Source of the DNA: Candidatus Flemingiibacterium sp.
GTDB taxonomy: Bacteria > Bacillota > Clostridia > Oscillospirales > CAG-272
Assembly (NCBI GenBank): GCA_045644145.1
Contig: JAZRGK010000058.1
Location: 557 to 64,556, forward strand
Length of the DNA: 64,000 bases
Direction of reading: 5' to 3'
In this document: positions 7,917 to 31,252 of the stretch, in pieces
Layout of the letters: each line of letters begins with the position of its first letter
Position numbering within the stretch: position 1 is the first letter of the stretch
The notes under the pieces: model-generated
Seen by the model: the letters and a program-made list of their open reading frames with translations, nothing else
Told to the model about the DNA's origin: nothing
The model's database searches: none
Made by a program: the position numbers and the translations under genes

Positions 7917-7968
7917 TTTATACACTCCTTTTCCAATTAGATAAGCATAGCAGTGTGGTAGCATACCA

Positions 7969-8126
7969 ATGGAATTAAAGGTAGACCTTTAATTCCATAA
8001 AAAGATTGACAAAGCTATGCGTTAGTGATAAAATATTATATGTATAATTATAACAAATTCACGTTGTTGTGGTGGTCATGGATTAACTGTTTACAGGTGA
8101 AATTAAAGGTCTACCTTTATGCATTT
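7969..8126. repeat. Pair of inverted palindromic sites flanking a promoter (candidate inversion sites)
   Basis: ATGGAATTAAAGGT-AG-ACCTTTAATTCCAT (7969-7998) and GTGAAATTAAAGGT-CT-ACCTTTAT (8097-8120). Confidence 0.75.
8006..8034 (+). promoter_or_regulatory. Near-consensus SigA promoter inside the candidate invertible segment
   Basis: TTGACA-N17-TAAAAT with TG extension; no sense gene downstream in this orientation. Confidence 0.65.
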
Positions 8127-8153
8127 TTGTCCAATTGAACAAATCAAACATTT

Positions 8154-11105: not shown

Positions 11106-12767
11106 TCATTCTGCAGCAATATTTTCTGTATATCGTAAAATAATCGTTGCAACCTGCGCTCTGGTACAATCATCCTTCGGGGACAGAGTGGTATCACTTG
11201 TACCCTTTATAAGTCCCTTTGCATATGCCCACTGCACTGCAGGCTTCGCATAATCGCTAACGTCTGCGGCGTCTGTATATGCGTCAAGTGCCGTACCGTC
11301 TGACGGCGTCAAGCCCTTGTACTTTAGATAGCGGTACAGTATAGTCACCATATCCTGGCGGCTAATACTGTCGTTTGTACCAAAAGTGTCCGCGGTATAG
11401 CCGTTGACGATTCCGTTTTCACTCGCCCATGCAATTGCATCGGTGTACCACGTATCAGCCGCAACATCATTGAATGTCACGCCTACACTTGCAGCAGGCT
11501 TACCGTCAAGTCTGTGAAGAACCGTTACGAGCATCGCTCGTGTCATCGGCATATCGGGTGAAAACTCCGTAGCACTTGTTCCTGCGAAAAGTCCCATTTC
11601 GGTAATCTTTTCAACCGCATCAAAATACCAGCTACCGCGAGCAACGTCGGTAAAGCGTGGTGCTTTAGGCTTTTGTCTAAAGAAAAACTCAATATGAGTT
11701 TTCGAAATTACGCTTGCGATAGTAACCGTCGTATCATCGGGATACGCCACTCCGTTTACTACTACCTTTTCAACCTCATATCCTTCATCAGGAGCTGCAA
11801 GCACTGTGACGGAAGTGCCGTAACGAACAAGCTGTTTTTCATAGCCCTCGACGATCTTACCGTTCTCTCCTGCGTTTGCAGTGACCTCAATCAGATTCTT
11901 TTCGCCTGCAATAAGTCCACCGATGACTCCGGAAATGTCACTTTGCTTTTTACCGTAGAACTTGGCATCCTCGTATGCGTACAGGGCTGAATTAAGCGCC
12001 TTTTCAGCCTCTAAAAATTCATCGGGAAGCACAGCCTGCGAAAGCGCCTTTTCAGCCGCCTTTATAGCCGCGTCAAGAGCATCGTAAGCCGTCTGCGATA
12101 CGGTAAATGCAGGATATATCAGCTCAGACGTAGGATTCATCACAGCCGCATCGAGCTGTGCCTTGGCTTTTTCTACACTTCCGGCAAGCGTTTCTTCATT
12201 CGAAGTTGTCTCTCCTGTGCCTATGCTAATCTCAAGTGCCGAGGGCGCCGATACGATAGGTCTTGCATTGGCAGCCTTATCCGTCAACACCATATCCGAG
12301 AGTGACAAAGTCGATACTCCGTTATTGAGCGTTTTAAATGTGAATTTCGCCAAAACAAAATCCGTGCCAACATTGACTCCGACCAGCTCCGAGCCCGAAG
12401 TCCCGCAAAGATAGCTGAACGTTACTCTACCGGCTGATGCATTGTCGCTAAAGCTCGTAGAAGCAAACTTCTCCGAAGCCTCAACATTTGTCAACTGTAA
12501 GAGGAATGAATTGTAGTGCAGTATGCCGTTGAATGCATATACCGGCGCTGACACCTCACTATTCGCATTTCCCATCGCATCCCTTGTGGAAACGGCAACA
12601 GTTACTGTTACCGTCTCCCCAACAGCGTACGTTTCGCCTTTTTTCGGTGCCGTAGCCTCAAGGTTCAAAGCATAGCTTACATTACTGTCCTCGGATGCTG
12701 ACGTCTGCAAAGCAAGCACCGAAGAGAGCATAAAAATGCAAAGCATTAAGCTAACTATTTTTTTCAT
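11106..12767 (-). CDS. Cohesin-domain SLH anchoring protein
   Basis: Signal peptide; cohesin-like VGETVTVTV...GILHYNSFLLQL...VLAKFTFKTL; FIVAR-like helix; three SLH domains. Confidence 0.8.
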   Translation of the reverse strand: MKKIVSLMLCIFMLSSVLALQTSASEDSNVSYALNLEATAPKKGETYAVGETVTVTVAVSTRDAMGNANSEVSAPVYAFNGILHYNSFLLQLTNVEASEKFASTSFSDNASAGRVTFSYLCGTSGSELVGVNVGTDFVLAKFTFKTLNNGVSTLSLSDMVLTDKAANARPIVSAPSALEISIGTGETTSNEETLAGSVEKAKAQLDAAVMNPTSELIYPAFTVSQTAYDALDAAIKAAEKALSQAVLPDEFLEAEKALNSALYAYEDAKFYGKKQSDISGVIGGLIAGEKNLIEVTANAGENGKIVEGYEKQLVRYGTSVTVLAAPDEGYEVEKVVVNGVAYPDDTTVTIASVISKTHIEFFFRQKPKAPRFTDVARGSWYFDAVEKITEMGLFAGTSATEFSPDMPMTRAMLVTVLHRLDGKPAASVGVTFNDVAADTWYTDAIAWASENGIVNGYTADTFGTNDSISRQDMVTILYRYLKYKGLTPSDGTALDAYTDAADVSDYAKPAVQWAYAKGLIKGTSDTTLSPKDDCTRAQVATIILRYTENIAAE

Positions 12768-12776
12768 ACCGTCTCC

Positions 12777-15700
12777 TTATTTATTGATTCTGTAAATAAG
12801 CATGAGCTGTGCATCAATGACGTTGATAATACCGTCGCCGTTCACATCACCGCGGATGAATGCGTCATCGCCAAGACCATACTTGTTATCTCCGTGGAAT
12901 GTGTCAACGGCAAGATTCATATCGGTCACATTAACGTATCCGTTGCCGTCATAGTCACCTTTTAAAAGAGCTGTAGCCTTATCGTTTTCATCGACACTCT
13001 GTATGATCGTAAGACCGCCGAGAACGTCTTCCACATCAACATCGGATGCAAAGGATGCAACGTAGGTGTTATCTCCTACATAGTAGAACTTTGTTTCTTT
13101 TCCGCCTACGTTGGTAGTCACCGATGAGATATCGTCCTTGTCGATGATAAGCGCGATCTTCGAGTAGCTTGCAAAGTCCGTTCTGACGGCTTCAACGCTT
13201 ACCTCTACACCGTCATCGCCCGAGCCCACGCTAACCTTGCGCTCCGTAACCTCGATAACGATGACGTCGGTCAGAGTGCTCTTGACAACCTTACCGTCAA
13301 CCTCAAAGGATGCAATCTCATAAATAACGCTTATCGCGGTTTCTCCGGGAACAAGTGCAGTCAGAACGCCCTCGTTGAAGCTGATAATATTCTGCTCGTA
13401 AAGAATCTTCCACGAAACATCATCACCCTCAAGCGCAACACGGTTTGAATTGTATATGCCGAACGCGCTGAGATTTACTGTTGTTCCGACGGGAATTGTT
13501 ATCTTCTTCACATCGTTAACAATTGCAGTATCCTTGTCTGCTGTAAGCTCAACCGAACCGAAATCGGAAAGCGAAGGAGTAACAAGATGTATGAGAAGTG
13601 TGGTCTTGTTTCCTGCTTTATCTGCAGCAACCAGATTAAGCTCACTCTTACTTCTGTCTGCTGTCACCTTACGGCTGACAGTGAACGAGCCGTCCTTGTT
13701 TAAGGTAATACCGTCAGTTGTTCCGTCAAGTGTCAGAACAGTGTCGGGATCGGTAACACCGCTGAAGCTTATGATACCGTCATCGCCAACGACAACATTC
13801 TGCATGCTTATTGCGGTATATTCGTCCTCCTTCTCGATATTCACCGAAACATCCTGACCCACCTTCAAGAGAGGAGCTGTGGTATCCACAACAAATGCGA
13901 ACGCAGCTTCCTCGTGAATACGGCTGTCGGTGGTATCATACTCGGGAGTTACAGCATAGAAGTCGATTACATGGTCGCCCTCGATAAGCGGAACGCTTAC
14001 TGTATGTACCTTCTTGCATTCAGTTGAGTAAGACTTTGTGAGTGTATCTGCCACGATGAAGAAGTATACATCTCTGTCGAAGGTATATGTTGCCTCAAAT
14101 GTGTCAACACACTGTGCAGACTTGGAGTCATCGATGTTGCTTTCGACGCTGAGAAGCACAGGAGTCTGCTTTTCGGGCATTACAAGTGCATTGGAATATA
14201 CAGATTCGTTGCTGTAATACATCTTGTCACCGTCGTATTTTACGGTGTCCACCGCAACATAGTAGGTGTTGCCGACAACAAGTCCTTGGTTCTCACCGAA
14301 GTAGTAAACATCGTTCTCATATTCGCCGGTCTGTGTGTTATAGAACTTCTCTCCAACCTCCTGCTCGAATATGCCGTTTTCTATAACGTTCATGTTTTCG
14401 TCGAGAATGCGTATGAGATATGCGTTGTATTCCACGTCGTTTTCACGCTCGATTTCAATACGGAGATCGCCGTCGCCGCCGTAGGATATGGTCACATCGT
14501 CAACATTCTCGGGAAGCTTATCGTTTTCGAAGGTGAACGCGGTATCATTCATCGCAAGTGACATACCGCCGACATCCTGTGAAAGCATGCATACAACGTA
14601 GTAATCTCCGTTGAGAAGTGTGTCGGGAATATCCGCCACAACGCTTCCGTCACGCATATTTTCAAGCTCAAAGCGTCCGAGTGAGATAAGACCGGTATTC
14701 GGGTCAGCTACACTCTGACGGAGACTCGAAAGTGCATTGGGGTTTTCTGTGATGTAAACATCAAGTGCACCGGGAACATCACTTTCACCGTCAACATCGT
14801 AGTTTATGGTAAGCTGATACGGATTGGATGCATCATAGCTGTATGTTACACCTGCAAGATCGGGAAGATCGTCAACGCCGTTTACCGCGAAATCGGAAAC
14901 AGTTACGCCGTCAGTAGCAATGGAGAGTGTCCATTCACCCTCTTCGAGAAGTTCCTTATCGGTTACAGTGATGTAAATATACTTCTGTGCGCCCTCACCG
15001 CGGTCATTGATAAGGAAGTTACCTCCACCCTGTCCGTCATCGGGAATCATCTCAATCTGTTTTCCGGAAGGAGTGAGCAGAATGATTTCCTCAGCCGTGG
15101 GGAACTTAACTCCGTCAAAAGGCACCTCAAGAAGGAGTGCATCCTCTGCGGTGGGATCGAATACCTTCTTTATAAGTATATCCCCTGCTCTGCCGCTGTC
15201 AACCTTTGTTGAAGTAAGACGGCGTAAGTTTGTACCGTAAAGCGCTGTACACTGAACATATTTGCCGTTTTCATCGTAGTAAGAGGTGTCAAATGCCTTT
15301 ATAGCATCTCCTCTGCCGCTAAGATCGATTCCCTGTCCTATTTCCCAGTCTCCGCCCCAATAATAGATGAAACCGAACTTGATTCCGATAATCTTAAGGT
15401 TAGCACCGATAAAGTCGGTCGAGCCTGCAGCTTCAACGCCGCCAAGCTCCATGCCACCTATCAGCGGCACAGATTCGGGAATACCGAGTGTTGCATAATA
15501 GTATACGTAGAAGTAATCCTTACGGATAGTTACGGTCATACCGCCCTTCATAAGTCCCTGAAGCAGTGTACCGTTTCCGTAAATATTGATGTTGAAGTCG
15601 GGCTTCCAGCGTATATTCGCGCCTGCCTCCAGCTTCAGTATTTTTCCGTCATCATCGTTGTTGAGGGTTACCTCACCGGTAAGTGAAACGTGCTCAAGGT

Positions 15701-18700
15701 TAAATTCAACCTCAAAGACACCGTTAAGGATCTCCACAAAGCTCAGGTCAATACGTCCGTAGATCGTCGGGAAATAGAGTCCTTCATCCTCGTCCTTGTC
15801 TTTAAGCGTTTCGGCAAGGTCGGAAATACCGAATCCGCCGCCTGTGATAAATACACCGGGGATGCCAAAGAACGGAACCTTTACGGCCTCAACACTGAGA
15901 TATGCCTTAACTTCATCGGGGTAGTATCTTTCTACACCCTTTCTTGTAATCTGCTTGAGCATGAGAGTTACCTCGCACTCAAAAAGATTCTTCACCTCAA
16001 CTCCGAAATCAAAACCGAATTCCTTGTCTAAGGTATTGATGTAAACTGTAGCCTCAACGCCAAACTTATTCTTGAATACGCCTCCAAGAACATCCGCTGG
16101 GAGTTTTACCTCAAGTGAGGTATTGATTCCGACGAAACCGGTTTCGTATTCTCCGGTTTCCTCGTTATAGGATTTGTGACCGAAAATTATGTCTTCGATC
16201 TCTGCGGTTATTTCGCCGTCATCGGGTTCATCTTCAATCTTACCAAGGCTGTTTACATACTGTCCAAGCTTGGAGTCGGAAGTAGTAACTGTAAGCTGGG
16301 GGGGATTATCTCCTGAAGGAAGTGTGAGTCCGACTTTGTTTCCACTGCCGGAGGTGTTACCACCGGAAGTGTTTCCGCTGCCGGAAGTGTTTCCGCTGCC
16401 GGAGGTGTTTCCACTGCCGGAGGTGTTTCCACCGGAGGTGTTACCACCGGATGTGTTTCCACCGGATGTGTTTCCGCCGGAAGTGTTTCCGCTGCCGGAT
16501 GTGTTACCACCGGATGTGTTACCACCGGATGTGTTACCACCGGATGTGTTACCACCGGATGTGTTGCCGCCGGAAGTGTTGCCACCGGAGGTGTTACCAC
16601 CGGAGGTGTTACCACCGGAGGTGTTACCACCGGATGTGTTGCCGCCGGAAGTGTTGCCACCGGATGTGTTACCACTATCGGGTTTGGTCGAGTCACCGGG
16701 TTTGGTCGAGTCACCGGGCTTGCTTGCATCAGCCTGCTTTTTAGCCTTTATCGGAAGAGTAGCCTTACCGCCGAAGCTGATGCCGTAGAGATCTTCATCT
16801 CTTGTAAGCTGACCGTATTTAAGGTCGATAAGAATTCCGCCGATATACTGAATTATCGAACCACCGATACCGAGTTGAAGTATAAATGCCTCGTCTTCAT
16901 CTTCTGCCTCAAGAGTAGACATCACGCCGTCCTTACCCTCAAGACTCCAGCCGTTATGCCAAACGGTTATCGAACCTATAACTTTGATTCTGCCGTTACC
17001 TGCGATAGTAGCAATATTATCGTTCTGGGTACTCCACCAGTCGCCCTCGATTGACATAGTAAGCGGCTCGGCACCGTCATATACAAGAAGGTTATTGATA
17101 GTTACATCGCCATCAGTGGTATTAGCCTGATAGAATAGCTTGCCGTTTTCATTCATATAGCGGATCTTACCTCTAACGACAGCCATTATTTCGCTTGTTT
17201 CAGGGTCAAAAGTAATAAAGTCATGTTTAAGACCGCGTCCGGTGAATTCGCCTTCCTCAAACTGCTTTAGCTGTTCCTCGCTGATAAATGAAACAAAATC
17301 GTAAGCCGGATAGTTATCTTTCTCAAAACGAACCATTGCCACAAGGCCGTAGCTCTGTGCACGGTAGCGCTCATCATCAGACACCGAGAGAACCTCTGCC
17401 GCAATAACCTTGCTTGTAAGCTCATCCTTTAACTGCTTATCAGTTAAGTGCAGTTCGATCTTGTAATCACCCACCGAGAGTGACTCATCGGTGGAGAAGG
17501 TCATCGTCTTATAGGTTTCGTTCGGGAATGCTATGGTGCTCTTGTCAATTCTCACCTTGTGGAAGCCCTTGATGAGATAGAGTTCCCATCCGGTAGAAGC
17601 TTTGAGAGCTTTGAGAGCCTCCATATCGCCGGAAACGGTAATATTCTTTTCGCCATCGGTATATACCTTTTGGGGCGAAACAGACGTCATCTTAACGTCG
17701 GGAAGCACGCCGTCAACACCGGGGACAAGTACATTCTTCTGCGACGAATATGTTGCCTGCGTCCATTCGATTTCAGACGTGTATTCAGTAGCAGATACGT
17801 TTACTGTAATATTTTTTGACGTAAGGTTTGCCTCGGGTGAAACCACAACGGTTCTCTTTATGGTTTTAACAGTTCCCTTCGGTATACCCATATTAAGGAT
17901 TTCCACGCCGACATATTCTCCGTAAGTTAACTTCTCCTCGGATAAGCCGGAATCCTTGAATGTAAGTCCCTCTTCAAGGAAAATGTCAACCTGTGCGGTA
18001 ATAATATCGACAGCTCCGTCAACGCTGTTGTCAAGCGTTATGATAAGCTCGATCTCGCCGCCGTTCTGATAACCGTCGCCCTTACTGTTAAGCTTTACAG
18101 AAGGAACGTTAACGCTCATGCCGAGATGCTCTTTACTGAGGTCAGCGGTAAAGTTACCGATGCCGTAGAGCATTTCCATTGTTCTCGATCCGCCTGCCGC
18201 CACCTCTTCTTCAGACCAGTAGATCGCGGTTGCCGTGTCGGGAACTCTATGTGCATTTGAGTAGTTGGAGAAATCGCAGCTCGCATCGGGAGTGTAGTCA
18301 TATCTCGTGTTTGCGAGATTTGCCCAGTGACCCACGATGACCTTATCGGGAGTGGTGTCACTCTCACCGCTCCAGCCCTTGAGCATTGCATACGCCATCT
18401 TCTTGGTGTTTGCAAGAGAATCCACATATGTAAGCTGCTGGGGCATATTTCCTGCCATATCGGAATATTCGGTTTCCACAATGGTAGGCGAGAAAATCTC
18501 GCTGTTGATAACGTAAGGCGCATCAACCTTGGAGTCGAGGGCGTTATCAAGCAAAAGGCGGATACCGACGTTGCCGGGAGTATCGTTCATGTTTACAACT
18601 GTGTAACCGATGCCTATATTTCCGGCAAGATCACTGTCTTCTATCTCGGAGATGATAACATTCTGCGTAATGAGATAACCCTTAACGCCCCACGAAACGC

Positions 18701-19082
18701 TCATCAGTCTGCCGCCATTTGAAATAACGGGGGTATAAAGATCGGTTTCGATGCCGAAATAGCTGTAATCCTGTCCGAATATGTAATCCTTGCCGTCAAT
18801 ACGTACCGTTGTATAGGACGTACCGTTGCTTCTTGCCGCCGCCTCGTTATAAAGAAGCGGAATATTGTTGTCAAATGTCTTCTGCGGATGACCCTCTTTG
18901 GTTTCCACAGAGAACGCTCCAGTGTCCGCATCGTATGCGAAGCGGACATAATCGTTTGCGATCTTATATACGCTTCCGCTTATCAGCGACTCGATACCGA
19001 GAGCCGCCGCACTTTCGGCGAGAGTCGGTACCATCATAAAGATGACAAGCAGAATTGATATAATTCTTTTAGAAAGCTTCAT
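12777..19082 (-). CDS. 2101-aa secreted protein with GGNTS linker and C-terminal dockerin
   Basis: Signal peptide; duplicated Ca-binding loops GDYDGNGYVNVTD and GDVNGDGIINVID at the C-terminus. Confidence 0.85.
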   Translation of the reverse strand: MKLSKRIISILLVIFMMVPTLAESAAALGIESLISGSVYKIANDYVRFAYDADTGAFSVETKEGHPQKTFDNNIPLLYNEAAARSNGTSYTTVRIDGKDYIFGQDYSYFGIETDLYTPVISNGGRLMSVSWGVKGYLITQNVIISEIEDSDLAGNIGIGYTVVNMNDTPGNVGIRLLLDNALDSKVDAPYVINSEIFSPTIVETEYSDMAGNMPQQLTYVDSLANTKKMAYAMLKGWSGESDTTPDKVIVGHWANLANTRYDYTPDASCDFSNYSNAHRVPDTATAIYWSEEEVAAGGSRTMEMLYGIGNFTADLSKEHLGMSVNVPSVKLNSKGDGYQNGGEIELIITLDNSVDGAVDIITAQVDIFLEEGLTFKDSGLSEEKLTYGEYVGVEILNMGIPKGTVKTIKRTVVVSPEANLTSKNITVNVSATEYTSEIEWTQATYSSQKNVLVPGVDGVLPDVKMTSVSPQKVYTDGEKNITVSGDMEALKALKASTGWELYLIKGFHKVRIDKSTIAFPNETYKTMTFSTDESLSVGDYKIELHLTDKQLKDELTSKVIAAEVLSVSDDERYRAQSYGLVAMVRFEKDNYPAYDFVSFISEEQLKQFEEGEFTGRGLKHDFITFDPETSEIMAVVRGKIRYMNENGKLFYQANTTDGDVTINNLLVYDGAEPLTMSIEGDWWSTQNDNIATIAGNGRIKVIGSITVWHNGWSLEGKDGVMSTLEAEDEDEAFILQLGIGGSIIQYIGGILIDLKYGQLTRDEDLYGISFGGKATLPIKAKKQADASKPGDSTKPGDSTKPDSGNTSGGNTSGGNTSGGNTSGGNTSGGNTSGGNTSGGNTSGGNTSGGNTSGGNTSGGNTSGSGNTSGGNTSGGNTSGGNTSGGNTSGSGNTSGSGNTSGSGNTSGGNTSGSGNKVGLTLPSGDNPPQLTVTTSDSKLGQYVNSLGKIEDEPDDGEITAEIEDIIFGHKSYNEETGEYETGFVGINTSLEVKLPADVLGGVFKNKFGVEATVYINTLDKEFGFDFGVEVKNLFECEVTLMLKQITRKGVERYYPDEVKAYLSVEAVKVPFFGIPGVFITGGGFGISDLAETLKDKDEDEGLYFPTIYGRIDLSFVEILNGVFEVEFNLEHVSLTGEVTLNNDDDGKILKLEAGANIRWKPDFNINIYGNGTLLQGLMKGGMTVTIRKDYFYVYYYATLGIPESVPLIGGMELGGVEAAGSTDFIGANLKIIGIKFGFIYYWGGDWEIGQGIDLSGRGDAIKAFDTSYYDENGKYVQCTALYGTNLRRLTSTKVDSGRAGDILIKKVFDPTAEDALLLEVPFDGVKFPTAEEIILLTPSGKQIEMIPDDGQGGGNFLINDRGEGAQKYIYITVTDKELLEEGEWTLSIATDGVTVSDFAVNGVDDLPDLAGVTYSYDASNPYQLTINYDVDGESDVPGALDVYITENPNALSSLRQSVADPNTGLISLGRFELENMRDGSVVADIPDTLLNGDYYVVCMLSQDVGGMSLAMNDTAFTFENDKLPENVDDVTISYGGDGDLRIEIERENDVEYNAYLIRILDENMNVIENGIFEQEVGEKFYNTQTGEYENDVYYFGENQGLVVGNTYYVAVDTVKYDGDKMYYSNESVYSNALVMPEKQTPVLLSVESNIDDSKSAQCVDTFEATYTFDRDVYFFIVADTLTKSYSTECKKVHTVSVPLIEGDHVIDFYAVTPEYDTTDSRIHEEAAFAFVVDTTAPLLKVGQDVSVNIEKEDEYTAISMQNVVVGDDGIISFSGVTDPDTVLTLDGTTDGITLNKDGSFTVSRKVTADRSKSELNLVAADKAGNKTTLLIHLVTPSLSDFGSVELTADKDTAIVNDVKKITIPVGTTVNLSAFGIYNSNRVALEGDDVSWKILYEQNIISFNEGVLTALVPGETAISVIYEIASFEVDGKVVKSTLTDVIVIEVTERKVSVGSGDDGVEVSVEAVRTDFASYSKIALIIDKDDISSVTTNVGGKETKFYYVGDNTYVASFASDVDVEDVLGGLTIIQSVDENDKATALLKGDYDGNGYVNVTDMNLAVDTFHGDNKYGLGDDAFIRGDVNGDGIINVIDAQLMLIYRINK
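16338..16720 (-). repeat. Intragenic tandem repeat encoding (G/GS)GNTS units plus PGDSTK repeats
   Basis: 15/18-bp periodic GGNGGNAACACNTCC units on the minus strand. Confidence 0.95.
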
Positions 19083-19094
19083 TTGTTACTCCTT

Positions 19095-22000
19095 TCACTC
19101 AGCCGTGTCAACGAATACCGTAATGGTAAAGTAGTCGCGCTTATCGGTCTGAACAAATACGGTATACCAACCGTCCTCAAGGTCACGCGCAACAAATCTG
19201 CCGTTGTATGCGGTAAGGGGTGTACCGAGAGTCTTCATCTGACCCATTGTGTATATTCCCTTAGCAAACTTAGCGTAAGCAACGCCGCCAAAATTCTTCA
19301 GGCTTATTTCGATATCGTCGCTGTCAACGGTAATCGCGTTTGCGCTGTTGGGCATTTTACCGTTAATAAGAGCGATTGTATCGTAGAAGCCTATGAGTCT
19401 TACGGTTCTGCGAAGCTGTGTCTTGTTGCCGGCATCGTCGTATATGGTATAGGTTATTGTATACGGCTTTGTTCTGTCGAACACATTCGCACTGATATCA
19501 TCGGGATTGAAATCACCGAAGTCGATCTCAACCTTATCGGTAAGGTCTGTGCGTATATTCTGGAATATATCATACGCCACGAAATCGTAGAACTTCGACT
19601 TGTCGTACGCAAACTCGGGATCGCGTCCGCTCGTCATCCCCTCGATGAAGATAAGCTCGTTATTTCCTTCAAAGGTGAGTGTCGGAGCCTCCTTATCGAT
19701 GATCTCGATATCAACACCGTAGGAGGAAACTGTGCCGTTTACAGCCGCAAGGTTGAATGTAAACAGACCGTTTTCAGCATAAATAAGGCTGTTTGCCTTA
19801 CCCTTGATATCGTTGCTTCCGAGAATGGATGTGTCCTTATCGGTAACAACCGTAACAGTTACATCTCTGTTTGTGGTCTTATAGACGTCGGAAGCTACCG
19901 TGTAACCTGCTTCGGTTCCGCTTGTATCCTTACCGATTTCCAGAGTCTTCTCAAATGTCTTCTTTTCCCATACGCCGCCGTCATTTCTTTCAAGATACTC
20001 ATAGCTCCAGGAAACACTCTGTATTACAGGAGCACGGTCATCTATACCCGAAACTGTCAGCTTAATAGTCTGGGAAATACCGGATTCATCAAAAATAGTG
20101 AAGGTATAGTCACCGTTCTGCTTAACGGTAAAGGTCTTGTCTGTGGTATAGGTGATACCGTCGTAAACCACTGAAAGCTCGGAAAGCTTACGGTATATAT
20201 CGATCGGCATTCCGTTTTCGTCAAGCTTCTGTGCAAAGGAAATCTCGACGCTGAGCTCATCCTCTGCGAGAGTTGCAATCGCCTCGAGAGACGGAGGCTC
20301 AGCATAGATATTGTTAACGCTGATAACGCTCGCACCTTCATTGCCGTAATCGTCAATATAGAATACGCTTACATATCCGCTCTTCTTGAATCTTATCTCT
20401 GTTGCACCGGGAGTATAAACGATATCATACTGACCAAGGTTGTCGGAACGCTCAATTCCCGTTACAGTAACATTGGACTTCGAGAATTCCTCAATTTTCA
20501 CAAGCACGCTTCTCGCAGTAACAGTTGTGGGAGGAGTGCTGTAGGAAAGCCTTACAATTTCGGGCTTTACCTTGTCGATATTGGAAACTGTAATCTGCGC
20601 CGCGAACTCATTTCCGGCTGCATCGTATGCAGTTACGGTGTAGTTGCCGGAAAGCGGGATCACAACGCTGTATTCGTTTCCGAGCACCTCGTCGTTCCAT
20701 TCCATAAGCTCACCGGATGAGTTGCGAATCTCTGAGTAAACTATCTCATTTACGTTATCCTTGTCTGCGATAGTAACAAACGCGGTAATATCCTTGTTGG
20801 TCTTGTTATAGTTTGAAAGTGTCCATTCGATAGTTCCGCCGTCGTTATCGTAAAGCTCATAGGAAACCGTCTTCGTGGCTGTATTTCCTGCGCTGTCGGC
20901 AAGCTCAAAGGTAAACGAGGTCTTTCCGCTTGTAAGGATCGTTTCGGTCTGCGTTCCGTTGTTCGATACGCTCATATCCTTATCGGAAGTCGGGAAGGTT
21001 ATGACCGCCTTTACCGTGCGGTAGTATTTGCCTTCGGTGATGGGCTTCCACTTACCGAGATAATTCTCATAGTAGTAAGAAACCGTGTAATGCTCACCCT
21101 CTGTGATAGGAGTCTTGTCGATATTGGTAACGGTGTATGTTTCTTCATATGTCATACCGGCTTTGTTGGTAACGATATAGGTAACGCTGCCGTTTTCCGC
21201 AAACTCAACGCTGTCGGTTGTCTTCGCACCAAGCGCCTCGCTCTTTCCATCGACAATTCTCACAACGGATGCGATACCGCTTTCACTGTCGCCAAATGTC
21301 GCGTTTACGGTAACATTCTGATTTGTGGGAGTGCCGTTGGCAATGTCAGCCTTGAAGGAAACTGTCGGAACAGTTTCATCGAATACAGAGGTATAGATTA
21401 CCTCATCCTGATAGCGTTCAGCCTCAATGCCCTCTGCTGTGTATGAAACAAAACCTACGTTCTTCTCAACAGAGCCGTCGTGAAGCGCAGTGAACACGAG
21501 CTTCGTGTAAGCGGTCTGCTCGGACTCTGTTTCATATACTTCGGATTTTTCCGCATCAAAAACATATCCGTTAAGAACCGCATCTGAAAGATCAAACGTC
21601 TGAAGCTCATATTCGGGATTACCCTCTATGACAAGCTCTATAACGTCGTCCTCGGTGAACGATATAAACGAACCGTTTTCAATTATCTCACCGTTCTTAT
21701 AGAGATCATATACGAGCTTGAAGCCTTCAATAAACGTGGAATCCGACGCAAACGTGAAGGTGTAGGTGCGATTTGCCTCGTCAACCGCGTAGATCTTCTG
21801 CTCGGAGTTGTCGCTCGCCGTTCTGGTAATTGTTGTTACGTAGCTTCTGTCGGTTTGATTTGCCGCAATCTGCTCATTTTCATCATCACTGTCGCCCGTG
21901 ACTAGAGAGGGATTAAGAACTGCAAGCGGCACGTTAAAGTCAATCGTTACTGTAGCAACAGACTTGGTTATTTCGGGAGTACTTACAGTCGAAGTTACCT

Positions 22001-25000
22001 CAGCCTGCGCGTCCACCATACTAAATATGTTGGATTCGGGACGGAGCACGTAAGAGTTTCCGAGAATATCGGTGCTCATTACAGCAAGTCCCCAGTTTCC
22101 GTCAAGCCCACGCAGCACCATATCGTACTCTATGACACCGTCCGCGGTAGATTTTTCAACAGTAAACTTCGACTTGTGCTCGTTATAGAGGTTGAATGCT
22201 TCCTCGTCAATAACACTTTCAGCACTCGGATCTTTTACAAGTGCGAAATTAGTTATAACGGAGTTTGCATCCGTAACTTTAACTGTCATATTGACATCAG
22301 TACGTGCGCCGCTCTCAAAAGCTTCGCTTGCTGCACTGATTACCGGAGCATCCTTGTCAATGCACTTTACAGAGATCGGTACACGAACCTCGTTGCCTAC
22401 TGCATCCGAAAGGGTTGCGAAGGTGTCAACGTTTCTCTTTACTGTCAGGATATACTTAAGATCGCTTTCCTTTACGAAGGATACAAGAGAGTTGGAAAGT
22501 GCAAGATTTGTAATACCGTTCGCATCGCTTGCGCTTACGGTTACGGTTACATCGTCCTTGGTGGGATTTGATGTGCTGTATTCAATATCAAAGCTCGGAG
22601 CGGTCGTGTCGTAAATGATCTCGTAAGCATAAACGTCGCTCACAAGCGATATTGCGGGATCTGCGGTATTGCCCTTCTCTGCACACGCAACCTTGAAGTA
22701 AAGAGTGTTCTTGCCCTCTGTCAGTACCACGGGAGATACTATCACAGAGTTTTGTGTAAGGTAATTTCCAAACACTTCCATAGGTTCTGCAAGAGTCATC
22801 CACGGACCAAAGTTAATGCCGTCGGTGGACACCTGATATTTTACGAACTGCTCAGATGTAAGATCCTCTGCACAGATCATGTTATCAAGCACCTGGAGAT
22901 ATACGGTATAGTCCTGTGTGGGTGTTACGGAAATACCGTCAAGCTTCACCGCGATGTCGTCGCCTGCAGAAGCAATGGTCGGCTTCTTTGCACGAATCGA
23001 GAAGCTGTCGGGAACAGCATATGTAGCAGCGTCACCGTTTACGTCAGTTGCGGTTATCACAAGATAGTAAACGCCGTTTTCGTCAGGCTGAAGCTTGATG
23101 CTCTCGCGAACACCGATCTTGCCGTCGCCGTAAACAGTAGGTGTAAATGTTCCCTCTCCTGCGAGCACGCCGCCATTTGTATAAATCTGATAAGCGGCTT
23201 CCTTAACGCCGGAAACGTCCTCGATTACAACGGTCGCCTGCTGGAGTCGCTGTGGCTGTAAATATATGCTCTCCCACGAAACATCTATAACCGGGGCGAG
23301 ATTATCGAAGATATAATTCTTCTCAAAGGTCACATTGTTGCCCGATCTGATTTCGGTTACCTTATACTGCAGCTTATATGTGCCGTCGAGAGTAACCGGT
23401 ACTCCGTCATCGCCAATCTGCACACCTGCGCCCACATCCTGTCCGTTATACAAAATGTAGCTCTGCGTGAGCGGGTTTGCATTTGCGGAAACGGGAATCC
23501 AGCGGTACTCGGTCTTATAAATACCGTCAATACCGTCAACTGTTTCTCTAAAGGAGATATCAAAGCTCTTCTTGGGAACAAGATTCGAGCTTGTTTCGAT
23601 TGTATCGATTGTCTCATAGTTGTAGATCGCAAGATCAGAGGCAAACTTTATAACCTCTGTTTCGTTGCCTACGCTGTCCTTTGTGAGGATGTAGAGATCA
23701 CCCTCGAAGCTTTCTTTAAGCTTTGTGGAAATAACGATAGTCGGAAGATTTCCGTTTTCATCAGCCTCAACGAAATTCCACTTGCCTACGGTAGTATCAA
23801 TTTCACCGGTTATTGCTTCTGCATCAAATTCAGGAAGACTCTCACCACTCGGAACAAATACATAGTAAAGTCTTGCCCACGAAGCAAGCGTATCTCTGTA
23901 GGAATTACAGAAATCCGTAAGGGTGAAATTATACTCGGTATGCTTTACCTTCTGCGCATCCTGATACCAGCCGCTTTGAGTGAGCTCATATCTCGGAGCA
24001 ACCGAGTCGATAAGCACGTTTTCAACTCTGCTGTTAGATATTGGGTTACCTGCATCGTCATAACCGTCGAAAACAAGCGTGTATACGCCCTCGGATGCAG
24101 TTGCCGTCTTGAGCGTTATCGGGAAATCCGCAAGAGTTGCGGTTGATACCGGAACGGTTACATTAAGGTAAGAGCCGGTGCTGCCGGTATAGTTGTTTAC
24201 CGGCACCTTGGTTGTGCCGTCGAGAAGCGAATAGTTAACATAAGCCTCATCGTCTGCAGGGTGCGGAGCGGTGTTCGACTTATAAAGCTGTTCACTTGCA
24301 CTTACGTGGAAGGTGTGCGAGGGCGCGATATTGTTTGTAATATCGAGCGCTACGCCGTCCTTGTCGGTAATGCTTACAGTGGGCTTCAGGGTATCCACCT
24401 TAAGAGTGGAAATATAGTAATCCCATGTGGTGCTGCCGCTGTTGAGCTTGTAGGTTACATTATTATATTTGGTAGAAACGTTTGTAAGGTGGAGATTCAC
24501 ACCTTCACCGTTGCCGTTAAAGTCTGCCGGAACAGTTCCGGTGAATACGATCTTCTTGCCGTCGCTCGAGGGCGCGTAGTTAAGATCGGCAAGCTTAACG
24601 CTTGTGCCGTTGCCGCTGTAAAGAGCCGCGTTGCAGCTAAAATTACTTACCAACGTCTTAATGTCCGCATCGCTGATAGAGGATACACAGTGGAGCGATG
24701 TGGGAGAAACTGTAATGGTAACGTTCTTCTTTGCGCTGTTTACGTAATCGTAATCCTGACGTGCTGTGAACACGGGAGTTTCCGAGTAGCTTACCTTACC
24801 GATATCGAAGCACTTACGGTAGATTGTAACTGTTTCGACATGTACGAGGTTACTGCCACTCGTTGTAAAAAGCGAGCCTGCGTTTGACGAGCGTGCGGGG
24901 ATCGAAAGCGTAAAGTTAAGCGTAGCCTTACCGATCCCCTTCGCCTTCATCTCGTTGTAGATCTGAGCATATGTAAGGCTCATACCGCCGGAAGCATCAG

Positions 25001-25697
25001 AGGTCGGCGCCTTGAAGGCGTTTGTAAACAGGGTTGTTGTACCTGCATTGAAGCTGTTGGAAATGGTAAGTGTCGGCGCATCGTCGCATCCAAACGGGTT
25101 GTATGTGCCGTACTGGTCAGTTGTCTGACCGTTCCATGAAAGAGAAAGCGAGCCGCCTTCATCTCCACCGATGTAAATGGTTTTTCCCCAGTTGTCAAAC
25201 GAACCGATAGAAGTAAAATTACGCTTGGTATACGAGGTTATATCCTTTTCCCAATAGTCGCCGCCGTCCCATGTTCCACCTATATAATAGGCAGTGCCGT
25301 TGGTAAGGTCGGGAGTGTTGGGGTTCCAATAGGTCGGAAGCCAGAACTCAATGTTTCCGGGTTTCCAGTCTGATGCAACACCTTTATTATCACCCTGGTG
25401 AACGTGAAGGGACTTTATCATCCAAGGATAGGTATAAAGGTCAATATAGTAGTTATGCTTTGAACCCTTCTCGAAGTCATCGTAGTCGGGATCGTCGAGA
25501 TGAACGCGGCGAAGACCGTCGTTATGGGTTTGGAATCCTGCATAAATGGATGCATTTGTACCTGCATTGGATTCATCACGCGTAGAAATTCTGAATCTAT
25601 ATCTGAACGTGGATGCCGGCAAAGCGCTGACGAACTGTGTCATCGCAGGCAGCATCATTGCAAGTACGAGAACAAATGCCATTAATCTATTTTTCAT
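19095..25697 (-). CDS. ~2200-aa secreted protein with N-terminal PLAT/LH2 domain and many Ig-like repeats
   Basis: YRFRISTRDESNAGTNASIY...DDFEKGSKHNY (PLAT signature); repeated D.AGN....ID..AP Ig-like motifs; RBS GGAGG before ATG 25697. Confidence 0.8.
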   Translation of the reverse strand: MKNRLMAFVLVLAMMLPAMTQFVSALPASTFRYRFRISTRDESNAGTNASIYAGFQTHNDGLRRVHLDDPDYDDFEKGSKHNYYIDLYTYPWMIKSLHVHQGDNKGVASDWKPGNIEFWLPTYWNPNTPDLTNGTAYYIGGTWDGGDYWEKDITSYTKRNFTSIGSFDNWGKTIYIGGDEGGSLSLSWNGQTTDQYGTYNPFGCDDAPTLTISNSFNAGTTTLFTNAFKAPTSDASGGMSLTYAQIYNEMKAKGIGKATLNFTLSIPARSSNAGSLFTTSGSNLVHVETVTIYRKCFDIGKVSYSETPVFTARQDYDYVNSAKKNVTITVSPTSLHCVSSISDADIKTLVSNFSCNAALYSGNGTSVKLADLNYAPSSDGKKIVFTGTVPADFNGNGEGVNLHLTNVSTKYNNVTYKLNSGSTTWDYYISTLKVDTLKPTVSITDKDGVALDITNNIAPSHTFHVSASEQLYKSNTAPHPADDEAYVNYSLLDGTTKVPVNNYTGSTGSYLNVTVPVSTATLADFPITLKTATASEGVYTLVFDGYDDAGNPISNSRVENVLIDSVAPRYELTQSGWYQDAQKVKHTEYNFTLTDFCNSYRDTLASWARLYYVFVPSGESLPEFDAEAITGEIDTTVGKWNFVEADENGNLPTIVISTKLKESFEGDLYILTKDSVGNETEVIKFASDLAIYNYETIDTIETSSNLVPKKSFDISFRETVDGIDGIYKTEYRWIPVSANANPLTQSYILYNGQDVGAGVQIGDDGVPVTLDGTYKLQYKVTEIRSGNNVTFEKNYIFDNLAPVIDVSWESIYLQPQRLQQATVVIEDVSGVKEAAYQIYTNGGVLAGEGTFTPTVYGDGKIGVRESIKLQPDENGVYYLVITATDVNGDAATYAVPDSFSIRAKKPTIASAGDDIAVKLDGISVTPTQDYTVYLQVLDNMICAEDLTSEQFVKYQVSTDGINFGPWMTLAEPMEVFGNYLTQNSVIVSPVVLTEGKNTLYFKVACAEKGNTADPAISLVSDVYAYEIIYDTTAPSFDIEYSTSNPTKDDVTVTVSASDANGITNLALSNSLVSFVKESDLKYILTVKRNVDTFATLSDAVGNEVRVPISVKCIDKDAPVISAASEAFESGARTDVNMTVKVTDANSVITNFALVKDPSAESVIDEEAFNLYNEHKSKFTVEKSTADGVIEYDMVLRGLDGNWGLAVMSTDILGNSYVLRPESNIFSMVDAQAEVTSTVSTPEITKSVATVTIDFNVPLAVLNPSLVTGDSDDENEQIAANQTDRSYVTTITRTASDNSEQKIYAVDEANRTYTFTFASDSTFIEGFKLVYDLYKNGEIIENGSFISFTEDDVIELVIEGNPEYELQTFDLSDAVLNGYVFDAEKSEVYETESEQTAYTKLVFTALHDGSVEKNVGFVSYTAEGIEAERYQDEVIYTSVFDETVPTVSFKADIANGTPTNQNVTVNATFGDSESGIASVVRIVDGKSEALGAKTTDSVEFAENGSVTYIVTNKAGMTYEETYTVTNIDKTPITEGEHYTVSYYYENYLGKWKPITEGKYYRTVKAVITFPTSDKDMSVSNNGTQTETILTSGKTSFTFELADSAGNTATKTVSYELYDNDGGTIEWTLSNYNKTNKDITAFVTIADKDNVNEIVYSEIRNSSGELMEWNDEVLGNEYSVVIPLSGNYTVTAYDAAGNEFAAQITVSNIDKVKPEIVRLSYSTPPTTVTARSVLVKIEEFSKSNVTVTGIERSDNLGQYDIVYTPGATEIRFKKSGYVSVFYIDDYGNEGASVISVNNIYAEPPSLEAIATLAEDELSVEISFAQKLDENGMPIDIYRKLSELSVVYDGITYTTDKTFTVKQNGDYTFTIFDESGISQTIKLTVSGIDDRAPVIQSVSWSYEYLERNDGGVWEKKTFEKTLEIGKDTSGTEAGYTVASDVYKTTNRDVTVTVVTDKDTSILGSNDIKGKANSLIYAENGLFTFNLAAVNGTVSSYGVDIEIIDKEAPTLTFEGNNELIFIEGMTSGRDPEFAYDKSKFYDFVAYDIFQNIRTDLTDKVEIDFGDFNPDDISANVFDRTKPYTITYTIYDDAGNKTQLRRTVRLIGFYDTIALINGKMPNSANAITVDSDDIEISLKNFGGVAYAKFAKGIYTMGQMKTLGTPLTAYNGRFVARDLEDGWYTVFVQTDKRDYFTITVFVDTAE

Positions 25698-25698
25698 G

Positions 25699-27399
25699 TT
25701 ATCCTCCGTTTGTTTCATTTATTTTATCAAGTGCGGATATCGCCCCTTCGGGATATCCGACCTCGAATAAATCGTTTCTCACATCAGGGTAATCGCTATG
25801 CCGTATAAGCGGCAGGTAAATCGCAAGACCGCTGTATTTACCCTCTATGGCACTTCGCTTATAGTAAATCGCACTCTCAAGTGCAACCGCTATATCGCTT
25901 GTGTTCATGTCGAGTGTGTCAAACACAGCAAACAGATCGTATTGATCCTTGCCTCCGTTATCGCCGTACGGAACAAGTCCTGCAGATGCAAGCTTCGCGG
26001 AAAGTCCGCCGCTGTTTAACTTTTCAAGCATCCGCGTGACTTCATCTGTCAGCGCCGTAACCTTGTCAAGCCGTATCACCGACATCATCACGTCTTCCCT
26101 GTTCTGGGGCGCATGAACTACGAACGAATCGACTATAAGTCTTGCAAGCTCATGTGTCGTGAGCTTTGGATCAGCCGAAAGTGAATTCAGCCATGTTGTG
26201 TAGTAAATTCCGTCTGTCGGAGTGATATCCTCCGAGGCGATCATATATTCGCCAACATCCTTCAGAGCGTACGCCGTTTCAAGCGTTCCCATTAGGCAGG
26301 CATCGAACACAATAAGGTCGAATTTCTCACCGAACGCCCCCATAGCGGACTTCATATCCGCAAGAGAGAGTGAGGCGTCGCCGTTTAGCTCATCTCGTCC
26401 GAATCCGCCGAGCGTTCCCTCTCCGTGGTCCCACATGACAAGCACGTATCTGTCGGCAACCACGTTTTCTTTAGCGTAAACGAGGAAATCCTCGAGTGTC
26501 TGCCGCTCACACATATTCACATCCTCAAGCACCGTAATATCGGTCAGTGAATTATCCGTTATGCGAAGCCGCTGTGTTGCTCCGTCATGAAGCTGTGTGT
26601 TGCGGTAATTCTTGGTTCCGCCGGTCTGCATCAGTATCTCGATATTAGTAGTTGGTGCATCGAGAATTTCGTTTATGTCCATTGAGAGCATGCCAAGCTT
26701 GCTTTCAAGATCGGATGCCACCGCGTATATCAGCACCGCGGTCTTTTGCTCACTTCCCGGTATCCTTGCTTTTGCCGCCGCGAACTGACTCTGTGTAAAC
26801 ACCTTGTTTGACATCAGCTCTTTTGCGAGCGTTTTGCTTGAACCCAGCATCGGTGTATTCAGCGCGGCGTAGGTCAGCCTTGCAAGCTCACCGCGAGTGA
26901 ATGTGTCCGGACCTTTTTTTGTAGCAAACTTATGAAGCGCAAATTCATAAGCTTCCGAATACCTGAACTGTCCGCCAACGTCATCGGAGTATCCGAGTGC
27001 ACGAAGTAAAAGCGTCGAATACTGCCTGTGATCTATCGGCATATTTGAGCCGAATTCGGTTTGTGATATGCCCTTTGAGATATTGTTTTCGTATGCGTAG
27101 CCGATATAGGCGTCTGCCCATCCGGCATCTGTGAACGGATGCTCGAAGTCGCCCGTGAGCGCCTCATCCTCCTTGCCGAGCACACGTATGAGAAGCGTTA
27201 TCGCCTCGGCTCTTGTTGTGGTACGCTCAAGCTCGTATCCGTTTCCGGTTCCCCTAAAAAGTCCGATTTGTGCAAGCGCATCGGCATACGGCTCGTTTGC
27301 CTCCGCCGCACTTATAGGCAAAGCCATAAGCAGTACAAGTATTACTGTCAAAAATATGATAATTCTAATTTTTATATTGATCACCTCTTTCACGGACAA
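25699..27399 (-). CDS. SLH-like domain plus clostripain-family (C11) cysteine peptidase
   Basis: LVMWDHG.G and FDACLM catalytic His/Cys motifs, YMIASE; N-terminal TRAEAITLLIR SLH-like repeats; start codon uncertain. Confidence 0.85.
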   Translation of the reverse strand: MSVKEVINIKIRIIIFLTVILVLLMALPISAAEANEPYADALAQIGLFRGTGNGYELERTTTRAEAITLLIRVLGKEDEALTGDFEHPFTDAGWADAYIGYAYENNISKGISQTEFGSNMPIDHRQYSTLLLRALGYSDDVGGQFRYSEAYEFALHKFATKKGPDTFTRGELARLTYAALNTPMLGSSKTLAKELMSNKVFTQSQFAAAKARIPGSEQKTAVLIYAVASDLESKLGMLSMDINEILDAPTTNIEILMQTGGTKNYRNTQLHDGATQRLRITDNSLTDITVLEDVNMCERQTLEDFLVYAKENVVADRYVLVMWDHGEGTLGGFGRDELNGDASLSLADMKSAMGAFGEKFDLIVFDACLMGTLETAYALKDVGEYMIASEDITPTDGIYYTTWLNSLSADPKLTTHELARLIVDSFVVHAPQNREDVMMSVIRLDKVTALTDEVTRMLEKLNSGGLSAKLASAGLVPYGDNGGKDQYDLFAVFDTLDMNTSDIAVALESAIYYKRSAIEGKYSGLAIYLPLIRHSDYPDVRNDLFEVGYPEGAISALDKINETNGG

Positions 27400-27400
27400 T

Positions 27401-27607
27401 CTAATTCGTCTGTCTTATGGGGTATTTGCATACCCCAACCTCGGGTACGCCTGACCTTTGTTCCTTGAAGTATGCGTATTTGCAAAACCAACAGTTGGTT
27501 ATCGGCTTGCCGAGGCATTTTCGATTTGAAAAATGCTCACACGCAGTAGAACGCGTTATTTTCACATTCGCTTCGGAACATGCCAATACCATATGTTCAA
27601 TGTTCAT
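27401..27607 (-). CDS. Small six-cysteine protein, first gene of the operon
   Basis: RBS GGAGG before ATG 27607; CWFC and GVCKYP motifs; stop abuts the next gene. Confidence 0.6.
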   Translation of the reverse strand: MNIEHMVLACSEANVKITRSTACEHFSNRKCLGKPITNCWFCKYAYFKEQRSGVPEVGVCKYPIRQTN

Positions 27608-27650
27608 GTACTCCTCCAAAAAGCATTCGAATATGTGCATATTTGTCTAA

Positions 27651-27719
27651 ATTATACCATATATATGGGGCTTAATATAGGTTTTGGAACGAAATGCATT
27701 CCTTGTGGAACGAAATGCA
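27651..27719 (-). promoter_or_regulatory. LytTR-type activated promoter
   Basis: Extended -10 TGGTATAAT (27651-27659, minus strand), no -35, two TGGAACGAAATGCA direct repeats 21 bp apart (27685, 27706). Confidence 0.75.
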
Positions 27720-27801
27720 ACGCAAATTGTTGAAAAAGATTGTCTTTTCTGATATAATTATATCAACACATAATAATTGTTATAGACAAGGAGGTAGTTA
27801 C

Positions 27802-31113: not shown

Positions 31114-31191
31114 ACATAAGAATATTTCCGCACAATAGTGCATCTACGGTCAATACCTTTTCATAAAATTTCTGAAAAATTTATTTTCCGT

Positions 31192-31219: not shown

Positions 31220-31252
31220 AAAGGGCGACCGCCTTGGTCGCCCTTCTCTCTA

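Follow-up and report, generated by a model that had tools for sequence, protein, structure and literature searches.

What is a cohesin-dockerin pair doing in an operon in which no glycoside hydrolase (GH) can be recognised? The question is raised by five genes in a stretch of 64,000 nucleotides from Candidatus Flemingiibacterium sp. (GenBank assembly GCA_045644145.1, contig JAZRGK010000058.1, positions 557 to 64,556). This stretch, here called the window and numbered from its first letter, belongs to contig C58 of a 2.09-Mb, 95%-complete genome. Such pairs are best known from cellulosomes. Here, the pair seems to stand in for a fused wall anchor on a very large surface protein that is not an enzyme, and judging from its relatives the operon is a case of a non-cellulosomal cohesin-dockerin wall anchor within a large uncharacterised family of paired giant proteins.

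A predicted cohesin-dockerin pair in a five-gene operon

ORF calling finds five open reading frames (ORFs), co-oriented and tightly packed on the minus strand at 11106-27640. By increasing coordinate they encode an anchor protein of 553 aa (11106-12767) with a signal peptide, a divergent cohesin, a helical/Flg_new_2 spacer and three S-layer homology (SLH) repeats; a dockerin-ended protein of 2101 aa, giant B (12777-19082); a PLAT-headed protein of 2207 aa, giant A (19095-25718); an SLH-C11 peptidase of 566 aa with a TTG start (25699-27399); and a small Cys-rich ORF of 79 aa (27401-27640). The anchor gene is separated from B by 9 nt and B from A by 12 nt, A and the peptidase gene overlap by 20 nt, and a single nucleotide lies between the peptidase gene and the Cys-rich ORF. 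A hydrophobic signal-like segment, read in the sequence, opens all four large proteins.

The original prediction, made from the letters of the window, had described five packed co-oriented genes in the region 11106-27719, and ORFs and Pfam domains bear this out. The lower end of the region holds as well; the upper end does not, as the last ORF stops at 27640 and position 27719 falls on direct repeats. The prediction had also recognised no GH or carbohydrate-binding module (CBM) motif. Pfam agrees: it matches no GH or CBM family, either in the four large proteins or in nine overlapping pieces (four of B and five of A) that were scanned with relaxed E-values. NCBIfam added nothing on the giants to the PLAT, dockerin and weak Ig-like matches obtained with Pfam.

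The cohesin of the anchor protein spans residues 45-171 (12255-12635, minus strand). Its match to Pfam Cohesin (PF00963) is borderline, with 24.2 bits against a cut-off of 24.1, and reaches 27.9 bits in a six-frame search of the own genome. Because the Pfam family was borderline here and missing in orthologues, a profile of 15 orthologous N-terminal modules was searched against the PDB; its top three matches are cohesins (1g1k, 2vn5 and 4ums, E 8.4e-5 to 6.1e-4). At profile level, the call of a divergent cohesin holds. The rest of the anchor is clearer: the three SLH repeats, about residues 371-545 (11133-11655, minus strand), score 117.6 bits in three stretches (Pfam SLH, PF00395), and Flg_new_2 is matched as well.

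On the side of the partner, a type I dockerin (PF00404) makes up the C-terminus of giant B at residues 2039-2099 (12786-12968, minus strand), with the loops DYDGNGYVNVTD and DVNGDGIINVID. Pfam gives no family for B when the whole protein is scanned, so the dockerin goes unlisted there, and the genome search leaves it at 21.0 bits, under the cut-off; the C-terminal 99 aa scanned alone reach 25.6 bits for Dockerin_1 (cut-off 22.9). The tail also matches the PDB dockerin 5nrk_B (E 3.7e-4), and two F-hand-like D.[DN].[DN]G.....D loops can be read in it, a pattern that we take to be the dockerin F-hand calcium loop. The original prediction had placed the cohesin at approx. 12230-12650 and the dockerin at approx. 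12780-12970, and both Pfam envelopes, given above, fall within these limits.

The same genome holds seven other dockerin matches (dockerin ORFs lie on contigs C3, C50, C82 with two, C30 and C22), six of them with a W.GY(E/D).LP-type tail, and two more, canonical cohesins (C61:1383-3059 and C27:17813-19414), one of which has an SLH-like end as judged by eye. By sequence, this is a second, separate cohesin-dockerin system. The dockerin of B is unlike the other dockerins of the genome and the other cohesins lie elsewhere, and therefore the window cohesin and the B dockerin fit a dedicated pair.

Interchangeable wall anchors in homologues of giant B

The C-terminus of giant-B homologues comes in three forms: SLH repeats, which are the most frequent (28 loci), a hydrophobic stretch with basic residues after it (G188, L101 and L108), and a dockerin. 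We asked which of them are followed by an anchor gene. Of the 79 loci that match B, 54 contain B in full together with 1.8 kb or more of downstream sequence; the other 25 were dropped as cut. A gene with the window-type cohesin module stands directly after B in all 20 dockerin-ended cases, in none of the 28 SLH-ended ones (0/28) and in none of the six others (0/6), and hence the split anchor stands in the place of the fused wall anchor. One further locus, L032, also carries the anchor gene, cut by the contig end. What is seen here is a natural swapping of anchor modules, in which SLH repeats, a membrane tail, or a dockerin plus a cohesin-SLH protein serve in turn.

The dockerin-ended form travels as a set. 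Genes for the C11 peptidase, giant A, a dockerin-ended B and a cohesin-SLH protein are all present in 20 of the 21 dockerin-type loci, and the contig of the 21st ends before the place of the C11 gene; the co-occurrence of the gene set in other genomes, which the original prediction had called for, is thus seen for these four genes. A quick maximum-likelihood tree, built on the N-terminal 743 residues of B, places the eight dockerin-type rows in one clade (SH-aLRT 99). The clade spans Oscillospirales-like metagenome-assembled genomes (MAGs) of gut Clostridia as well as Sedimentibacter and Paenibacillus, at 45-50% identity. As it joins Clostridia with Paenibacillus, the whole cassette would have moved between classes and stayed intact, and the tree argues for such a transfer. 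The cassette looks reduced in a Clostridiaceae MAG (L092:7853-15109), where A is represented by no more than two ORFs, of 188 and 515 aa, and the match to B sets in at residue 247, with the C11 and cohesin-SLH genes kept.

A large family of paired giants

The original prediction did not see that the operon is a member of a very large paired-giant family with interchangeable anchors. With residues 1-770 of B as query, a word-indexed search finds 121 proteins at E<=1e-3, and the 120 of them that were listed measure 1173-3062 aa and belong to Clostridia and Paenibacillus. A profile of the N-terminal 770 aa was searched against 1.84 billion cluster representatives (clusters at 50% identity). At E<=1e-3 it matches 2613 proteins; a threshold of E<=1e-10 leaves 1719 of them, and one of E<=1e-30 leaves 761 clusters. 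Among the best 150 profile matches the match starts within the first 54 residues in all and within the first 24 in 149. The database names of B relatives read hypothetical, S-layer homology domain-containing or dockerin type I domain-containing protein, and two JGI entries read 'trimeric autotransporter adhesin'; none of these names bears a function, and the conserved parts have no Pfam family.

The scan of species-representative genomes gave 92 relatives, of which 80 loci were kept. The closest relative of B in these genomes, at 89% identity, comes from a Candidatus Flemingiibacterium MAG; others come from MAGs of ruminant and human gut Clostridia, from Sedimentibacter and Lutispora and from about 15 Paenibacillus species. 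In 77 loci at least 300 nt of sequence are available upstream of the N-terminus of giant B, and in 76 of these a co-oriented ORF stops no more than 250 nt before B begins, with a median gap of 12 nt. Similarity to giant A (BLAST, E<=1e-5) was found for 68 of the 76 upstream ORFs, and the A-B arrangement occurs also in three distant family members (G099, G188 and G024). By this measure A and B are a conserved gene pair. In one human-gut Clostridia MAG (L082:2913-25556) two giant-A/giant-B pairs follow each other in tandem.

The distribution of the pair is patchy. Within the genus, B homologues occur in 4 of 31 other genomes, with identities of 97, 85, 43 and 29%; many genomes of this set are incomplete. 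Of 200 further genomes sampled from the taxonomic family, four match the N-terminal part of B, three of the four with full-length homologues. No full-length relative of B was found on 72,556 plasmids. The sequence occurs in 20 DNA datasets of animal-gut metagenomes from 10 studies, and no RNA dataset is among those listed.

Architecture of giants A and B

Giant A consists of a signal peptide, a PLAT head, a stalk of repeated beta-sandwich modules and a conserved C-terminal module, with no anchor. The head (PLAT, PF01477, residues 40-124; 25347-25601, minus strand) scores 28.4 bits in Pfam against a cut-off of 23, and a profile of 15 A heads matches PLAT domains in the PDB, at E 1.2e-9 for the C. 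perfringens alpha-toxin and at E 2e-8 to 1e-7 for lipoxygenases. The PLAT call on the A head holds at this level, with lipid or calcium binding as a prediction only. The stalk modules carry recurring D.AGN ... ID..AP motifs and give only weak Pfam matches to Big_3_2 and Bact_surface_Ig-like. A PDB sequence search with giant A returned no matches, and the ESM Atlas gave only unnamed clusters and Ig-like leads for the giants.

The two ends of A evolve differently. Relatives that are 88% and 76% identical over the whole of A keep only 43-44% identity in the head, no nucleotide alignment of the head is possible in three of five close relatives, and Pfam recognises PLAT in 7 of the 27 A heads scanned (E<=1e-3). 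At the other end, the conservation profile has its best-conserved part of A at residues 1897-2207 (19098-20030, minus strand), a candidate junction with B. Across 31 relatives residues 1950-2200 keep 0.41-0.49 identity to the window sequence, and residues 1961-2207 as BLAST query find 73 ORFs in 72 loci.

Giant B begins with a signal peptide and a supersandwich, continues with beta-sandwich domains, a low-complexity linker, a porin-like beta-meander and a further beta-rich region, and closes with the dockerin. AlphaFold2 (AF2) models residues 28-770 as all-beta with a mean pLDDT (predicted local distance difference test) of 79.5. Residues 28-315 (18138-19001, minus strand), the best-conserved part of B, are predicted to fold as a galactose-mutarotase-like supersandwich; the conservation maxima lie at residues 51-100 and 251-300 (0.61-0.62 identity to the window sequence across the 31 relatives), and R175, D179, H252, W253, D282 and Y288 are invariant across relatives. 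Aligned with VIA-align, the predicted model matches 3dcd with Z 16.8 (root-mean-square deviation, rmsd, 2.9 Å over 211 aligned residues), many aldose epimerases with Z 13-16 and N-terminal domains of GH94 enzymes with Z about 15; N-terminal domains of GH97, GH36 and GH15 enzymes are matched too. Pfam and NCBIfam do not recognise the domain. In the model no catalytic barrel follows it, only beta-sandwich domains. The original prediction had named catalytic domains of carbohydrate-active enzymes (CAZymes) in the giants as a finding that would speak against it, and since the supersandwich is without a catalytic barrel we count none; with no CAZyme catalytic domain detected, its view of a non-cellulolytic wall-tethered cohesin-dockerin surface complex is supported. 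The domain, as modelled, is nevertheless a sugar-enzyme or accessory fold.

A distant homologue of the supersandwich shows a different setting. It forms the N-terminus of a hypothetical protein of 1192 aa on a Bacillus cereus plasmid (L111:5812-9390, NZ_AP022929.1), with 28% identity to B residues 40-315 (query residues 13-288 of 743), and is followed by an LCAT-like alpha/beta-hydrolase fold. This hints that the supersandwich can serve lipid-acting enzymes.

The linker of B, about residues 780-940, contains a (GGNTS)n part (16417-16675, minus strand) in which Tandem Repeats Finder counts 17 copies of an in-frame 15-bp repeat. In most relatives the linker is missing or different (gap fraction 0.63-0.87), and as its length and sequence vary even among close relatives (L034 and L035), the repeat is likely a length-variable spacer. 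After the linker, residues about 955-1255 (15318-16220, minus strand) are predicted to form a porin/VDAC/usher-like beta-meander of ~20 long antiparallel strands, which is conserved through the whole family. The AF2 model of residues 940-1330 has a mean pLDDT of 70, with blocks of 80-90 over model residues 80-310. VIA-align places it nearest to MtrB (6r2q, Z 12.6), with porins and TonB-dependent receptors behind at Z 10-12; the rmsd is 5.3 Å to PapC and TOM40 and 5-9 Å to barrels overall. Foldseek matches VDAC1 at E 2e-4, with barrel TM-scores of 0.3-0.4. Since these deviations are large and the TM-scores low, only the up-and-down topology is common to the sheet and the barrels.

Peptidase, small ORF and regulation

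The peptidase carries a C11 domain (PF03415) at residues 225-463 (26011-26727, minus strand; Pfam 134.9 bits), preceded by an SLH region at about residues 38-215 (22.4 bits in Pfam, where 20.8 are needed; BLAST, too, finds it similar to SLH regions). The motifs WDHGEG and FDACLMG can be read in its sequence and presumably hold the catalytic His/Cys dyad. The original prediction had spoken of a clostripain: family C11 stands, clostripain proper does not, as the equivalog TIGR02806 gives 37.4 bits where 550 are required. With the catalytic part as query (E<=1e-3) we found 23 loci, all of them dockerin-type or truncated close relatives of that type.

Beside SLH-type giant pairs other genes were noted. 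S8 subtilases, one of them with SLH, lie next to the pairs of G099 (L025:6144-7721) and G024 (L028:15133-16062), and a transglutaminase-core protein with SLH adjoins the pair at L071:16993-19773. In the sample of 33 flanking ORFs these three loci were the only ones near SLH-type pairs to show proteases. The S8 and transglutaminase-core genes may be analogues of the C11 gene.

The small Cys-rich ORF is open and 68-75% identical in three of the five closest relatives. Over its last 60 codons the differences to these three at first, second and third codon positions are 7/7/23, 6/11/28 and 7/9/29; because they pile up at third positions, the ORF is taken as genuinely coding. Its conserved part begins at Met12 (27607). 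The ORF lacks a signal peptide and matches no Pfam family, and the comparison points to a real, small cytoplasmic protein that is not evidently in the surface complex.

Divergently from the operon run the genes of a LytTR response regulator and a GHKL (HATPase_c_5) histidine kinase (27694-29789, plus strand; Pfam), which are kept beside the operon in the five closest relatives (L031-L035). Between the divergent promoters lie two 17-nt direct repeats (27682-27719), 21 bp from start to start and with the core TGGAACGAAATGCA. The exact 14-nt core occurs in the 2.09-Mb genome in these two copies only, and copies with at most two mismatches are found in the same intergenic region of all five close relatives. 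Paired direct repeats at about 21-bp spacing are the usual LytTR site. The repeat pair is thus a candidate, and probably a true, LytTR box of the divergent promoters, and control of the operon by the LytTR/GHKL two-component system is likely. The annotated ATG of the regulator (27694) sits inside the repeats, so that its true start is probably near 27800, which a GGAGG precedes. The promoter scan gives a promoter-like site at 27730-27758 on the plus strand; over the region, counts from the promoter and terminator scan were the same as for shuffled sequence. Distant loci have other regulators in the same place, of TetR-like, OmpR-type, LuxR-type and AraC-type.

Genomic neighbourhood

The original prediction had the operon carried on an island. 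Evidence for this is weak: the GC content of the operon (0.46-0.48) is that of the rest of the window, and low GC is found next to it, at 4-12 kb, in the stretch that holds the resolvase. The patchy distribution and the span of the dockerin-type clade fit transfer of a cassette, not a defined island, and on these grounds the operon is accessory and probably mobile over evolutionary time. Synteny with the closest relative (L031) stops at 11091, just past the anchor gene.

Two neighbouring regions are worth noting. Window positions 2425-8759, with a GC content of 0.37-0.39, encode a surface protein of 1427 aa with BspA-type leucine-rich repeats, Flg_new and SLH, and a serine resolvase; this stretch is a better candidate for a recent insertion than the operon. 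On the regulator side, 30544-33087 encodes a HEPN (pEK499_p136-type) protein followed by tyrosine-integrase fragments of 251 and 171 aa (31253-33087), which may all be remnants of a mobile element.

Discussion

Taken together, the parts suggest a wall-tethered surface fibre of two secreted giants. The SLH repeats would fix the anchor protein to the wall polymer, and its cohesin would hold giant B via the dockerin, so that the N-terminus of B would point outward from the wall. There, most likely at the N-terminal supersandwich, B would hold the conserved C-terminal module of A. The two giants would form an end-to-end fibre, with the fast-diverging, ligand- or membrane-binding PLAT head at its distal tip. 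The wall-bound C11 peptidase would cut one component, either for maturation or for release, and the divergent LytTR/GHKL system would switch the operon on via the repeats at 27682-27719. As a whole, with all its steps, we consider this model reasonably probable.

The original prediction had the PLAT giant binding, or depending on, the dockerin giant. The adjacency of the two genes in 76 of 77 loci and the conservation of the A C-terminus and the B N-terminus fit the dependence; a contact of the two proteins is what we infer from them. A three-chain co-fold of B 28-320, B 950-1262 and the partner A 1897-2207 gave scores of 0.76, 0.79 and 0.76, and the controls gave 0.00 and 0.00 with the partner replaced and 0.75 with chain 2 replaced; with its three-chain design this test is evidence neither way.

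Several points weigh against the fibre model. Pfam Cohesin, borderline in the window protein, misses all nine orthologous anchors scanned at E<=1e-3. The C11 gene is missing from all 28 SLH-type loci, so that proteolysis is not a general need of the giant pair. Since the dockerin-type loci are one clade, the association in 20 of 20 loci counts as one evolutionary event, which by the tree is linkage and not repeated invention. A search of proteins of 3678-5000 aa turned up no fusion of A and B, which is weak evidence. A simple adhesin model leaves the porin-like sheet unaccounted for; Paenibacillus at least has no outer membrane. It is also unusual for a ligand-binding tip that the outward end of B is the best-conserved part of the whole system; it has a sugar-enzyme fold besides. 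In one genome (G194), the only possible second instance of the dockerin type, the B homologue has what looks by eye only like a dockerin tail and is followed by a membrane protein. And the biological role, most likely adhesion to a surface, a particle or another cell, is read from the architecture. The membrane protein of G194 was itself considered as a cohesin, which is not supported (no Pfam family, an hhalign probability of 4% and no PDB cohesin matches).

Alternatively, the pair might be a contact-dependent membrane-targeting device that serves antagonism or nutrient acquisition and not plain adhesion. PLAT would bind the target membrane, and the ~20-strand sheet of B, or both giants, would insert, permeabilise it or move lipid. 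The PLAT profile does match the membrane-binding domain of the C. perfringens alpha-toxin and of lipoxygenases, the structures nearest to the sheet are transmembrane beta-barrels (Z 10-12.6; VDAC1 at E 2e-4), and the supersandwich homologue on the B. cereus plasmid precedes an LCAT-like lipase fold. However, at rmsd 5-9 Å and TM-scores of 0.3-0.4 the barrel matches show a common topology only, PLAT is recognised in only 7 of 27 heads though the sheet is kept across the family, no immunity-like gene is conserved beside the pair, and Pfam finds no toxin or lipase domain in A or B. We regard such a device as unlikely. No better and no worse is the chance that we give to an appendage for the capture or processing of glycans, a non-catalytic relative of cellulosome- or amylosome-like systems in which the mutarotase-like domain of B would act on sugars, by binding or conversion, and the fibre would keep particles of polysaccharide at the cell surface. 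The match of the supersandwich to aldose 1-epimerases (Z 15-16.8) and to N-terminal domains of GH94, GH97, GH36 and GH15 enzymes is what one would expect of it, as are the six invariant residues (R175, D179, H252, W253, D282 and Y288), the second cohesin-dockerin system of the genome and hosts that inhabit herbivore guts or soil. But the fold is also found in non-carbohydrate proteins such as copper amine oxidases, beta-sandwich domains and not a catalytic barrel are predicted after it, and neither giant has a GH, polysaccharide lyase, carbohydrate esterase or CBM family.

It might also be that the giants have no specific ligand at all and form a structural coat or spacer layer on the S-layer or wall. 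SLH anchoring is common across the family, the stalks are long and repetitive, and the family is kept in very different habitats. A coat would hardly be so patchy (4 of 31 other genomes of the genus and 4 of 200 sampled genomes of the taxonomic family), and the varied dedicated regulators and the fast-evolving head point to an accessory, interaction-driven function; we think a coat slightly less probable than either of the two readings above. The least probable in our eyes is a new kind of monoderm machine in which the mutarotase-like domain of B catches A, the sheet and PLAT insert into or bridge a foreign membrane, C11 arms or releases the complex and LytTR exerts quorum-type control. It would act as a contact-dependent pore or lipid conduit.

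The wall-tethered fibre is our preferred reading, and the operon points to a large unstudied family in which two adjacent secreted proteins of ~2,000 residues are shared by gut Clostridia and soil Paenibacillus. As cultured Paenibacillus species, P. polysaccharolyticus (L041) among them, carry the same four-gene cassette, the system is genetically testable. To know the ligand of the fibre would help to understand how abundant Firmicutes of the gut attach to particles, to hosts or to each other.

Comparison with known systems

We found no description of the cassette in the accessible parts of the literature, work on cellulosomes and amylosomes included. The closest likeness of the anchor protein is to SLH-anchoring scaffoldins, in which an N-terminal cohesin and C-terminal SLH repeats tether a dockerin-bearing partner, as they would in the window. 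SdbA, OlpB and Orf2p of Acetivibrio thermocellus are such cellulosome anchoring proteins with cohesin and SLH. Unlike them, the window anchor has one divergent cohesin and its cargo is a single adjacent non-enzymatic giant of 2101 aa; the operon comes without CBM3 and GH, and the family of the cargo elsewhere bears SLH itself. With its single cohesin and no GH or CBM in the four large proteins, the operon lacks the multi-cohesin scaffoldin, the CBM and the dockerin-bearing glycoside hydrolases that define a cellulosome. 'SLH-anchoring' and 'single-cohesin' scaffoldin classes are defined in PMC11557425.

The supersandwich of B has its predicted fold in common with aldose 1-epimerases and the N-terminal domains of GH94 enzymes. 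In contrast to these it is only 6-15% identical, stands at the tip of a surface protein of 2101 aa and has no catalytic domain after it.

Cohesin- and dockerin-like modules outside cellulosomes have a wider history; Peer et al. in 2009 reportedly described noncellulosomal ones in all three domains of life. The glycosidase/toxin complexes of Clostridium perfringens are non-cellulosomal cohesin-dockerin pairs as well. They share with the window a cohesin-dockerin plug that works outside plant cell-wall degradation, whereas here the plug would replace a fused wall anchor in a two-giant cassette and travels with a C11 peptidase.

Finally, LapA/LapG of Pseudomonas and RTX adhesins of the MpIBP type are giant repeat adhesins with a surface-release protease. 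A long Ig-like stalk, a distal ligand end, a terminal retention module, and a cysteine peptidase together with signalling genes are features that such systems would have in common with the window operon. However, the hosts of the window system are monoderm, export by signal peptide is read in the sequence in place of type I secretion, and there are no RTX repeats; two proteins stand here for one, and the peptidase is of family C11 with SLH and not of the LapG type. The likeness may thus tell how the system works, by analogy and not by family membership.

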